Made by a program: the position numbers and the translations under genes. Below the pieces are notes generated by a model, which saw nothing but the letters and a program-made list of their open reading frames with translations, searched no databases and was not told the origin of the DNA. Below, piece after piece: positions 12,023-19,650 of a stretch of DNA of 28,150 nucleotides (position 1 is its first letter; each line of letters starts with the position of its first letter). The DNA is taken from contig DASZPR010000621.1 of assembly GCA_035550235.1 (NCBI GenBank), positions 1 to 28,150 on the forward strand, written 5' to 3'. Source of the DNA: Verrucomicrobiia bacterium (GTDB taxonomy: Bacteria; Verrucomicrobiota; Verrucomicrobiia; Limisphaerales; DASXHY01).

Positions 12023-12691
12023 GTGAACGAAAAGTTTAACATCGACAGCGTCCAGCCGCTGCAGCCGGTGCAAGGCGAGCCGACGGATTGGCTCGGCAAT
12101 TGGCATCCGCTCGCCGAGCAACTCGGGTCGACGAACGGCCTCGTCGCGCTCAGCGACATCTCGATCTCGATGCAAGTGCCGCTCGTTCACGATCTCGCTT
12201 CGCTGAAACATTTTCTCACCAGTTACCAGAAACAATTGCTGCTGCCGATCGAGTTGCCCGCGATTCAACGCGCCTTCGATCACGCCTGCCGCCATGAGAT
12301 GCGCGAACTCGCCGAGTTCGATCGCCAGCTTGCCGCTGAACCGGCGCTCAAGCCATTTGCTGAGGCCAGCAAACGCATCGGCCAGACGGAATTGTTGAAG
12401 CTGCGCCCGCTGCGCGATGAACGCATTGTGCGGCGTTATCTCGAAAGCGTCGACCGCGGCGAAGCGAACGCCTGGCACACGCTGGTATATGGCCTTACGC
12501 TCGCGCTCTACTCCATTCCGTTGCGGCAGGGATTGCTCGGCTACGGCTACCAAACCACGCGCGGCTTCATTTATTCCGCCGCCAAAGCCCTCCAGCTTTC
12601 CGAAAAAGATTGCCGCGCCTTGCTCGATGAATTGTGCGACAACCTGCCGGCGGCCGTGGAAGGGTTGATTGCGCAGCGCGCAGCGGCGTGA
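12023..12691 (+). CDS. UreF-like protein (orphan, atypical termini)
   Basis: Helical pattern ELPAIQRAF...ELAEFDRQLAA....FAEASKRIGQ..L and HTLVYGLTLA..SIPL..GLLGYGYQTTRGFIYSAAKAL resembles the UreF core; GTG start. Confidence 0.6.
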   Translation: MNEKFNIDSVQPLQPVQGEPTDWLGNWHPLAEQLGSTNGLVALSDISISMQVPLVHDLASLKHFLTSYQKQLLLPIELPAIQRAFDHACRHEMRELAEFDRQLAAEPALKPFAEASKRIGQTELLKLRPLRDERIVRRYLESVDRGEANAWHTLVYGLTLALYSIPLRQGLLGYGYQTTRGFIYSAAKALQLSEKDCRALLDELCDNLPAAVEGLIAQRAAA

Positions 12692-12731
12692 TTCCGGCGT
12701 TAGGCACAATACAAGCCTGACGCTCATCTCT

Positions 12732-13367
12732 GTCTCCCTCTCCGCCGCGGAGCGGGGGAGAGGGCCGGGGTGAGGTGGCGCTTAGAAATCAGGGGAGGCG
12801 GTTGGCTTCCGTTTTTGCTGAATATGCTGTAAATCCGCCGGGATAAATCTCTGCTTCTCAACTTTGTTCCTAATTTGAACAATACCCGTTCGCCGCCGCA
12901 ACGCGTTCCATATTTCGATAAGGCAACCATCGCGGTTTTCGCGCCATTGATGATTCCAGAATCTCAATACCTCGATATTTTCTTCCGCCAGCTTTTTTGT
13001 GCGAGCCTCGTCCTTTTGAACTTCATCGGGCAAACCATGATGAAATCCGTCCAGTTCAACGGCGAGCTTTGCTTCAACGCAATAAAAATCCAAAATGTAG
13101 TCGCCACTCGTATGCTGTCTGCGAAATTTGAATCCGGCAAATTGCCGATCCCGCAACGCGCGCCACAGTTGTTTTTCTTCCTCGGTTTGTTCGTGACGGA
13201 GTCGGCGGGCGATTTCCTTTGAGCTCACGTCGGAAGAATGATCTCTGTGGAGAAAAAAACAAGCTTCCCACGTGTATCACGGAATGGTCAGTCGCGTAAG
13301 CCTGATAAATCTTATCAGCGCCACCTCACCCCAACCCTCTCCCCCGCTCCGCGGCGGAGAGGGGGAC
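12732..13367. mobile_element. Putative IR-bounded DUF559 endonuclease cassette
   Basis: 51-bp inverted repeats at 12732-12782 and 13317-13367 (48/51 identical), each with an internal ccctctcc...ggagaggg hairpin, enclosing only a DUF559 gene and its upstream region. Confidence 0.6.
12782..13228 (-). CDS. DUF559 family (Vsr-like, PD-(D/E)xK) endonuclease
   Basis: ARRLR..QT..E..LW..LR.RQ..GFKFRRQH..G.YILDFYC.E.KLAVELDG.HH.....D..R...L......VLRFWN signature; GTG start. Confidence 0.9.
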   Translation of the reverse strand: MSSKEIARRLRHEQTEEEKQLWRALRDRQFAGFKFRRQHTSGDYILDFYCVEAKLAVELDGFHHGLPDEVQKDEARTKKLAEENIEVLRFWNHQWRENRDGCLIEIWNALRRRTGIVQIRNKVEKQRFIPADLQHIQQKRKPTASPDF

Positions 13368-13478
13368 GGAAGCTACGGTCGCAAGTTTGGCGTTTGAGTT
13401 ATACGTGGCCTTTCCGTGTTTATTTTTTGCGGACGATTTTGGTTGTTTCTCCGCGATTGTCTGGGAAATTACCGTTGA

Positions 13479-13952
13479 ATGAGCCTCGTTCGCATTTTGG
13501 TGGATGGCTACAGCCTGTTGCATAGCTGGCCCGAACTCGCGCCCGGCAAGGCTCGCTATTCCGCCGCCGCGCGCGATGAACTCGTGCGCGTGCTCACGCT
13601 TTACCGTGACGCCACCCTGACTCCCATCACCATTTTCTTCGACGGCTCAAGCCCCAAAATCGAGGGTCCCTCGCAGACTCGATCCACGCCCGAGGTGGAA
13701 ATTCTTTTTTCACGCGCCGGCCAGACCGCCGACCAAATGATCGAACGCGCTGCGCATCGCTTTCAACCCTACGGCGAAGTGCTCGCGGTGACCGATGACT
13801 TTGCCGAGCGCGACACCGTCATTAATATGGGCGGCCTGGCGTCCAGTTGCTGGAATTTCATTCAAACGGTACAAAATACGCTGGTAGAGTTGAACGATGA
13901 GATTAAACATCACAACCGGCGGGAACAGAACAAGTTCAAGCGCCGATCCTAG
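13479..13952 (+). CDS. YacP/Rae1-like NYN domain RNase
   Basis: ILVDGYSLL, IFFDG, EILFSRAGQTADQMIER, AVTDD acidic NYN pattern. Confidence 0.85.
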   Translation: MSLVRILVDGYSLLHSWPELAPGKARYSAAARDELVRVLTLYRDATLTPITIFFDGSSPKIEGPSQTRSTPEVEILFSRAGQTADQMIERAAHRFQPYGEVLAVTDDFAERDTVINMGGLASSCWNFIQTVQNTLVELNDEIKHHNRREQNKFKRRS

Positions 13953-19491: not shown

Positions 19492-19650
19492 CCTGACGCC
19501 CTCCGTCTCCCTCTCCGCCATGAAATAGGGGACTTGAGTTGCTTGGGAAGCAACGAAAGGAATCCGCCGAAGGCGGAGGCCCGGAACGGGCCGAGCGAGC
19601 GGGAGCGAGCGAGTCATTGGGCTGGGGAGAGGTGGTGCTCAGGGTTCAGG
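19492..19650. repeat. Composite structured element: ccctctcc/ggggagagg shell around three hairpins and GAGC repeats
   Basis: tctccctctccgcc is shared with the DUF559 IR; hairpins gttgctt-ggg-aagcaac, tccgcc-gaa-ggcgga and ggcccg-gaa-cgggcc, then gagcgagcgggagcgagcgag. Confidence 0.6.

Follow-up and report, generated by a model that had tools for sequence, protein, structure and literature searches.

The window considered here is a 28,150-nt stretch of DNA from a Verrucomicrobiia bacterium (assembly GCA_035550235.1, of which the window is one whole contig, DASZPR010000621.1), and its positions 12729-13370 form a discrete cassette in which one gene of the DUF559 nuclease family lies between two inverted repeats. 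The best explanation is that this segment is a "TM-tron", that is, a leaderless stand-alone DUF559 gene placed between inverted, triplex-forming repeats of the class variously named triplex motif (TM), BoxC, and PIT. The pairing of this gene with this repeat recurs in other phyla, the repeat variant follows the clade of the protein, and the cassette occupies different gene contexts in different genomes. We tentatively propose that DUF559 is the dedicated nuclease partner of TM repeats, with the framed gene accompanied by solo copies that serve as substrates, a reading to which we give slightly less than an even chance.

Organization of the Cassette

A repeat search of the window returned one outstanding inverted pair, the arms of which (12729-12787 and 13312-13370) are 59 nt long, 90% complementary, and 524 nt apart. 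The first-pass annotation of this DNA had described 51-bp inverted repeats around a DUF559 gene; these were recovered as the core of the longer 59-nt arms, and the only credible gene between the arms was, as it had stated, DUF559 (12782-13228, minus strand). One repeat had also been said to abut the stop codon, and the TAA at 12782-12784 indeed falls within the left arm, the outer part of which shares bases with the stop codon of DUF559. The features of the cassette are as follows.

12729-12787, plus strand: left inverted repeat, gene-distal (3'), one TM-type copy (repeat search, DNA fold, genome family, and TM consensus)
12736-12743, plus strand: pyrimidine arm of the left copy, CCCTCTCC
12744-12756, plus strand: inner stem and loop of the left copy
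12757-12764, plus strand: purine arm of the left copy, GGAGAGGG
12765-12766, plus strand: spacer of the left copy, CC
12767-12775, plus strand: third-strand tail of the left copy, GGGGTGAGG
12782-13228, minus strand: DUF559 (Vsr-like PD-(D/E)xK) nuclease gene, 148 aa, GTG start, probably leaderless (Pfam PF04480)
13235-13262, minus strand: candidate promoter for a leaderless mRNA, as read from the sequence
13312-13370, minus strand: right inverted repeat, gene-proximal (5'), TM-type copy (repeat search, DNA fold, and pattern match)
13356-13363, minus strand: pyrimidine arm of the right copy
13335-13342, minus strand: purine arm of the right copy
13333-13334, minus strand: spacer of the right copy, TT
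13324-13332, minus strand: tail of the right copy, GGGGTGAGG

In both flanking copies the unpaired GGGGTGAGG tail is directed towards the gene. The candidate promoter consists of TTGTTT (13257-13262), 16 nt, and CATTCT (13235-13240), followed after 6 nt by the GTG start. It is present just as the first-pass annotation had described it, and a promoter-like geometry of the same kind (TTGxxx, N16-17, xAxxCT, N6, start) recurs in relatives from three clades, among them the protein clades T and A introduced below, but TTGTTT/CATTCT was not called in a scan with the sigma-70 consensus.

The Repeats as Intrastrand Triplex Motifs

When folded as single-stranded DNA, each arm formed a stem of 8 bp (CCCTCTCC/GGAGAGGG) and, beyond a G·G mismatch, an inner stem of 4 bp closed by a GGA loop, with energies of -15.5 (left) and -15.7 (right) kcal/mol (z = -2.1 and -2.7). 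The hairpin with (C/T)GTC in front of it, which had been reported earlier, folds, but it is not a plain hairpin: it matches the G/C-rich intrastrand triplex motif of Holder 2015 (PMC4666352), which is defined as CCCTCNCCC, N3-6, GGGNGAGGG, N3, GGGNGAGGG. The window copies share the block order and sequence of that motif, reading CCCTCTCC, 13 nt, GGAGAGGG, CC(G) or TT(G), and GGGTGAGG, with a second loop CCG as in TMECO type B. They differ in the first loop, which is 13 nt long with its own 4-bp stem instead of N3-6, and an A-for-T tail variant exists among the repeats studied here.

According to Holder 2015 (PMC4666352), the TM motif is present in >260 genomes from many phyla, where it is mostly intergenic and multi-copy; TM/TMECO repeats had earlier been named PIT elements and BoxC (PMC4666352). 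The E. coli TMECO triplex was stable in vitro, a role in vivo not being demonstrated there, and rearrangement was elevated around TM sites. Neither transposase or integrase remnants nor a common flanking gene were found at TMs, and ycjD, DUF559, and endonucleases are not mentioned in that study. Whereas no partner gene was reported for TMs, the repeats here frame a DUF559 gene, and whereas selection on the triplex in vivo was not shown, three-way covariation now adds comparative evidence.

This covariation was measured in an alignment of 328 unique repeat copies, taken from the source genome and from every locus retrieved. Covariation was strongest between the columns that a hairpin with an antiparallel purine third strand would pair, and joint changes of all three strands, from C:G*G to T:A*A, were observed at three positions (71, 11, and 4 copies, counts that are inflated by subfamily structure because copies are not independent events). 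The rules of purine-motif triplexes (G*G:C, A*A:T, and T*A:T) were obeyed by 95% of 3111 base triples in the mirror register, compared with 45-63% when the third strand was slid by 1-2 nt. Where the purine position carried a minority base, both other strands compensated in 86 of 113 copies, a proportion that dropped to 0-10% on sliding. The third block mirrors the purine arm instead of repeating it directly, which argues for a folded triplex over three copies of a duplex binding site, and the T and A variants of the tail are both legal under the triplex rules (T*A:T or A*A:T). Judged from the aligned copies, three-way covariation provides an independent line of evidence for selection in cells on the triplex register itself; the compensatory changes of three strands in this mirror (triplex) register are a new finding here.

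Recurrence beside DUF559 Genes

DUF559 relatives were gathered as 54 loci from species-representative genomes, nearly all of them Verrucomicrobiota, and 56 further loci. At 37 of the 54 loci, nhmmer detected a repeat on the plus strand 30-80 nt upstream of the gene and one on the minus strand 0-60 nt downstream; at least 45 loci showed this arrangement by eye. The first-pass annotation had tied its proposal to the repeat being commoner beside DUF559 genes than elsewhere, and this is what was found: the repeat was about 37 times denser beside the gene, at 3.8 per kb compared with 0.10 per kb elsewhere in the same loci. In all, the repeat-DUF559-repeat layout was present in most of >100 Verrucomicrobiota loci, with fixed orientation and distance, and the cassette itself occurred in 1-4 copies per genome.

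A sample of 151 genomes of the source's order (the order sample) contained 55 stand-alone DUF559 loci, and at about 38 of these the flanking inverted repeats scored above every shuffle; the framed loci included a third, more distant protein clade with short-stem repeats. Flanks with the same motif, again above shuffled controls, were detected at 22 of 38 DUF559 loci from a Pseudomonadota sample (151 genomes). The motif was present in 9-145 copies in five proteobacterial genomes, with 0 in the reversed control, and copies lay directly on either side of the DUF559 genes of three genomes (G502, G507, and G579). Among control open reading frames (ORFs) in the same loci, the flank score was reached by 2.2% of 268.

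E. coli ycjD, a DUF559 gene, was tried as a framed case and rejected; its 3' end carries only a degenerate CCCTCTCCC...GAGGGGG, and it was not used as evidence. Its start codon lies inside a perfect 18-bp hairpin (MG1655, L223, 1351300-1351840), a weak echo of the framed cassette.

These data bear on whether the arrangement might be a coincidence, with abundant intergenic repeats gathering around a small gene without any functional tie. In favor of such a coincidence, the source genome is rich in repeat families and the compared intergenic regions are repeat hotspots. We consider it very improbable, given the 37-fold local enrichment, the orientation and distance fixed in >100 loci, the mere 2% of control ORFs with comparable flanks, the same motif beside DUF559 in different phyla, and the conservation of the flanks, which equals that of coding sequence. 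In two syntenic groups, the purine arm and tail were conserved at 0.88-0.91, like coding sequence, compared with 0.1-0.4 for adjacent intergenic DNA.

Repeat Variants, Protein Clades, and Co-Occurrence

The protein tree contained two deep clades (100/99 support), which coincided with the tails GGGGTGAGG and GGGGAGAGG. The first-pass annotation had asked whether flank sequence covaries with protein phylogeny, and the tail variant does follow the two clades. Two genomes contain both protein clades, each with its own tail type, and in the source assembly, where the genes belong to clade T, 49 copies are T-type and 0 are A-type.

The presence of the gene was also strongly and positively associated with the size of the repeat population. 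In the order sample, at least 10 T-type copies were present in 31 of 40 genomes with a stand-alone DUF559 gene, compared with 27 of 111 where none was found, and at least 10 A-type copies were present in 9 of 14 genomes with a clade-A gene (clade assignment being crude) versus 11 of 111 with none found. The classing of proteins as T, A, or S by BLAST identity is crude, with at least L073 and L074 misclassed, and only pooled figures were used. Within the source genus, the gene was present in 7 of 10 repeat-holding genomes and in 0 of 2 repeat-free genomes.

Repeat Copies in the Source Genome

The source assembly (G000) comprises 4.02 Mb in 819 contigs and is 72% complete. Iterated nhmmer searches returned 70 repeat copies, and a strict motif search returned 69 copies in the genome versus 0 in the reversed genome. 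Three subfamilies were distinguished. The long inner-stem subfamily, with tail GGTGAGGTGG, is the type of the window copies; the second has a TCC...GGA inner stem and tail GGTGAGGAGG; and the third, with about 35 copies, is short, with tail GGTGAGGGGG and a 5-nt stretch separating the 8-nt core arms CCCTCTCC and GGAGAGGG. The inner stems of the family show compensatory changes. Other repeat families are abundant in this genome as well.

Most copies are solo and, by a crude measure, apparently mostly intergenic; placing them in genes or between genes by stop-to-stop ORFs is unreliable, as the repeats are open in several frames. Four copies of the short subfamily (C672:2237-2268, C661:1033-1064, C703:1350-1381, and C369:1593-1624) are located in open frames of very great length and could represent either insertions, in frame, into real genes or read-through artifacts. 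Two tight convergent doublets, on contigs C622 and C748, are gene-less, with tails inward and a spacing of 27 nt, and no convergent pair in the assembly other than the DUF559 cassette is spaced widely enough for a gene. Besides this complete DUF559 gene, the assembly holds the 3' end of a second one, truncated where contig C622 ends, with a repeat adjoining that 3' end too. Doublets of another form were seen in genome G393 of the order (e.g., C2:157627-157757 and C3:192645-192775); they have an identical start-to-start spacing of 112 nt and outward tails, like a composite of the miniature inverted-repeat transposable element type.

One further copy was found in the window.

19504-19640, plus strand: disrupted solo copy of the long-stem subfamily (sequence compared with the subfamily consensus, and fold)

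The first-pass annotation had recognized a relative of the cassette hairpin at 19504. It is real and belongs to the same subfamily, but it is disrupted: its 5' arm and half loop, CGTCTCCCTCTCCGCCATGAAAT, are separated from its 3' end, GGGCTGGGGAGAGGTGGTGCT, by a nested insert of about 95 nt that interrupts the loop and 3' arm. Within this insert lie three small hairpins, of which two have GAA loops; GAGC-type repeats come next.

The DUF559 Protein

The 148-aa protein matched Pfam DUF559 (PF04480) over profile positions 3-108 of 109 with E = 3.4e-34 and 117.5 bits (cut-off 20.6), and more weakly REase_MTES_1575. The closest solved structure was that of a Neisseria gonorrhoeae DUF559 protein (PDB 3HRL, E = 5.9e-19), which has been grouped with Vsr and the homing endonuclease I-Bth0305I (PMC3424549). 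The catalytic core, an Asp followed by Glu-x-Asp-Gly-x-x-His, is intact in the window protein (D47, E58, D60, G61, and H64) and was conserved at 98-100% in 132 homologues from several phyla; together with R11, E18, W22, R37, D73, R76, R89, and N92, conservation was 93-100%. In Caulobacter, the DUF559 protein VsrA (CCNA_02930) causes an SOS response in vivo, with DNA damage when a cytosine methyltransferase is missing (PMC12907096). Because the core residues are conserved and the Caulobacter protein damages DNA in vivo, it is plausible that the window protein is an active enzyme. Residues ~111-148 (window 12785-12898) form a conserved C-terminal extension with a Q/H-R-F-I/V-P-P core, which is present in clades T and A and absent from clade S and the proteobacterial homologues.

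The window protein thus has the same Pfam family, fold class, and acidic/His core as E. coli Vsr, VsrA, and 3HRL. The role published for such nucleases is the repair of T:G mismatches, tied to cytosine methylation, with no repeat association described. DUF559 could alternatively be a host housekeeping or repair nuclease, specific for structures or mismatches, that processes triplexes, hairpins, or T:G mismatches and would be useful mainly in TM-loaded genomes, with its flanks regulating or insulating the gene instead of acting as transposon ends; we regard this as unlikely. VsrA is SOS-linked and was interpreted as a very-short-patch repair nuclease (PMC12907096), TM sites have been linked to genomic instability (Holder 2015, PMC4666352), the gene is single-copy and syntenic over many species, the upstream tail meets a -35-like box at a fixed distance, and the gene predicts the repeats better than the repeats predict the gene. 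A housekeeping gene, however, would not be expected as a framed cassette in many unrelated contexts, missing at the corresponding junction of a close relative; regulation leaves unexplained the downstream inverted copy and the flank variants that track the clades within one genome; and in the window no cytosine methyltransferase adjoins the DUF559 gene.

Genomic Contexts and Junctions

In the window, the cassette is preceded by a UreF-like gene (12023-12691) and followed by a YacP-type NYN gene (13479-13952). The 54 loci fell into at least five syntenic groups (12, 9, 4, 4, and 2 loci) and singletons, and the window shares its neighbors with none of them. Cassettes from different contexts are alike only in the gene and its two repeats, similarity stopping at the outer hairpin edges. 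Judging from these neighborhoods, the cassette relocates occasionally and is then inherited vertically for long periods, as described for the REP-associated tyrosine transposases (RAYTs) of repetitive extragenic palindromic (REP) sequences.

The UreF-like/NYN junction was compared with that of G457, a closed genome of the same genus in which the two neighbors are 92% and 94% identical to those of the window. The cassette is absent from this junction, where the first-pass annotation had suggested looking for an empty site, but the allele is not a clean empty one; an unrelated 1.5-kb gene for a lipoprotein-like protein of ~500 aa lies there. The only DUF559 gene of G457 lies 0.77 Mb from the junction and is 68% identical to that of the window. 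Synteny with five same-genus genomes starts only at window position ~13430. At the outer edges of the window cassette no target-site duplication was seen, in agreement with the first-pass annotation. For the solo copies, a comparison of filled and empty sites between contig C199 of the source assembly and G457 left the insertion boundaries undefinable, the intergenic DNA being diverged and filled with repeats.

Several further observations concern these sites. The UreF-like/NYN junction (G457:C1:1179063-1180698 versus window 12692-13478) is a rearrangement hotspot in the genus; the two neighbors are on separate contigs in G432 and G453, and 8 kb apart and inverted in G454. In the cassette of G457 itself (L001/L153, G457:C1 ~1949600), unrelated DNA has been inserted into the loop of the downstream TM copy and truncates it. 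An 11-bp direct duplication (GCCCGCTTTTG) brackets a doublet-bearing insert ~1.2-1.4 kb downstream of DUF559 in loci L029 and L013. The insert holds a convergent TM doublet in L029 and a single tail-less hairpin in L013, each with ~60 nt extra; the site is empty in L011 and L024, and L015 has a different REP at the same spot.

When L028 is compared with L034, a segment of ~830 bp that contains the DUF559 cassette (~2923-3755 in L034) proves to be inverted with respect to the flanks on both sides, either because the inverted repeats recombined or because the cassette was inserted independently in the opposite orientation. The inverted repeats might make the DUF559 gene phase-variable by inversion, as in a programmed inversion switch, and Milman et al. 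2023 (PMC9881135) found DUF559 enriched among their predicted targets of programmed inversion (odds ratio 14). One such inversion between species was seen, but the orientation does not vary within syntenic group A or within group B. Because the repeats enclose the candidate promoter as well as the gene, an inversion would not act as a switch; no recombinase gene was found nearby in the window, and the ~70 solo copies would be left unexplained. Of what characterizes an inversion switch, only the inverted repeats are present, and we find this explanation scarcely credible.

Both orientations of the cassette at one site would equally be expected if the target were palindromic, as for a homing-type parasite that lodged in a convergent TM doublet and cuts empty doublets; in this case, or if the gene were a passenger carried between two mobile repeats as composite transposons carry cargo, the repeats would be spread and maintained by something else. 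I-Bth0305I, an EDxHD/Vsr-like homing endonuclease (PDB 3R3P), offers a parallel in its related nuclease fold and selfish-gene logic, and DUF559 has been placed in the same clade (PMC3424549). Gene-less convergent doublets with inward tails do exist (C622 and C748, 27-nt spacing), many repeat-rich genomes are without DUF559, and there are only 1-4 cassette copies per genome. The two differ in that the DUF559 gene stands alone between folded repeats, outside any intron or intein, and a defined target allele in its empty state was not found. Likewise, none of the cassette sites yielded an orthologous empty doublet, and vertical inheritance across 9-12 species in syntenic loci is long, unlike that of an active homing gene. 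No other gene family was seen between these repeats, the sole gene-sized convergent pair of the source assembly being the DUF559 cassette, and the repeats would be left without a mobilizing enzyme, Y1 transposases having been excluded (see below). A parasite or passenger is in our estimation an improbable explanation.

Comparison with REP/RAYT and Insertion Systems

The arrangement resembles that of REP/REPIN-RAYT systems (REPtrons; Nunvar 2010; Bertels & Rainey 2011, PMC3116915, PMC3337134; PMC3733652), in which an enzyme gene in one or few copies is likewise framed by inverted copies of a short folded repeat that is dispersed tens to hundreds of times. In both cases inheritance is mostly vertical, new contexts are entered occasionally, a genome can hold several pairs of enzyme and repeat, and the repeat class follows the enzyme clade. 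The enzymes are unlike: that of REP/REPIN-RAYT is an HUH/Y1 (IS200-like) tyrosine transposase, whereas that of the window is a Vsr-like PD-(D/E)xK nuclease. TM repeats also differ in having no GTAG tag, in combining a hairpin with a mirror-repeat third strand, and in persisting in many genomes where DUF559 was not found.

The motif GGGGWSAS was reported in the terminal inverted repeats of genes for TIRYT, a RAYT-like tyrosine transposase (Di Nocera 2013, PMC3733652). It fits the TM tail and thereby suggested that an HUH enzyme (RAYT/TIRYT) mobilizes TM repeats, which was rejected when 0 of 26 Y1_Tnp genes in G000, G457, G393, and G367 were flanked by the repeat. The Y1_Tnp genes of these genomes are framed by other hairpins, in line with the non-HUH character that the first-pass annotation had proposed for the cassette. 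The source assembly contains at least 6 RAYT/IS200-like Y1_Tnp genes (C447, C387, C325, C274, C576, and C708; L118-L124), each with its own hairpin family, so that several REP/RAYT systems coexist with the TM/DUF559 pair.

Two other assignments were also rejected. CGTC-tagged REPs have an 8-9 bp stem starting with A/T pairs, a 4-5 nt loop, a CCA tail, and a terminal CGTC (PMC3733652); the window repeats share only the (C/T)GTC tag, having a G/C-rich stem (CCCTCTCC), the tail GGGGTGAGG, and a different loop. An insertion sequence or transposon would agree with the terminal inverted repeats, but no duplication was seen at the window copy, which encodes no DDE, HUH, serine, or tyrosine recombinase.

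A Possible Mode of Action

Whereas the structure of the cassette, the specific pairing and its recurrence across phyla, selection on the flanks and on the triplex register, and the variety of gene contexts are shown by the data above, we infer that DUF559 would bind and cleave the repeats and may help to spread or homogenize them. The enzyme would recognize the folded repeat (hairpin plus purine third strand), likeliest on transiently single-stranded or supercoiled DNA, and would introduce a nick within it or next to it. Action of the enzyme in cis on the flanking copies, whether in control of its own gene, in gene carriage, or in both, would be the reason for their retention. The gene with its frame would serve as the master unit, with the scattered copies as non-autonomous substrates of its enzyme, the logic of REP/REPIN-RAYT being carried out by an unrelated PD-(D/E)xK enzyme. 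That such nicking of triplex-folded TM/BoxC/PIT repeats drives their copying, homogenization, or movement, as a non-HUH counterpart of REPIN-RAYT, is possible but doubtful in our view.

A number of points weigh against a dedicated partnership of this kind. PD-(D/E)xK nucleases cleave DNA without joining it, which leaves the chemistry of transposition lacking. No cleavage site or target-site duplication was found for the window cassette, and no base-precise empty site was present at its junction in G457 and other same-genus genomes. In the order sample, 27 of 111 genomes in which no stand-alone DUF559 gene was found still have at least 10 copies, and 50-100 copies without such a gene were present in G393, G367, G414, G398, G381, G397, and others; G393, which is 96% complete in 150 contigs, has 73 copies as well as 16 doublets of fixed spacing, yet lacks any convergent pair of gene size. 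Linkage by itself would make the flanks covary with the gene, and conservation of the motif across phyla could stem from the physical demands of triplex formation instead of protein specificity. In addition, the sampled genomes are related, and the counts overstate independence; most are metagenome-assembled genomes, from which a 0.6-kb cassette between repeats is easily lost, so presence and absence are blurred both ways. The mobile selfish element of the first-pass annotation therefore stands in part. The cassette is a discrete unit, found in many unrelated contexts and absent from the G457 junction, and the outcome that the annotation had named as its refutation did not arise, but its "REP-mobilizing" character was not supported, 27 of the 111 genomes in which no stand-alone DUF559 gene was found being repeat-rich.

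Significance of the Pairing

Hundreds of bacterial genomes carry TM/BoxC/PIT repeats, which were recognized ~30 years ago, and DUF559 is a very large family "of unknown function". To our knowledge, the only tested DUF559 member has been interpreted as a mismatch-repair enzyme. Although both the repeat class and the protein family have been described before, we found no paper linking TM repeats with DUF559, the nearest printed hint being one table row in which DUF559 is enriched among predicted inversion targets (PMC9881135). Because the pairing recurs across bacterial phyla, the DUF559 family is a serious candidate for the missing protein partner of the orphan TM repeats, and linking an orphan repeat class with an orphan protein family gives both a concrete and cheap test. 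If the partnership is true, it would represent a second, mechanistically unrelated route to REP-like repeat populations and a possible source of structure-specific DNA tools, and DUF559 would become the first known example of an enzyme that reads natural triplex DNA as its substrate.

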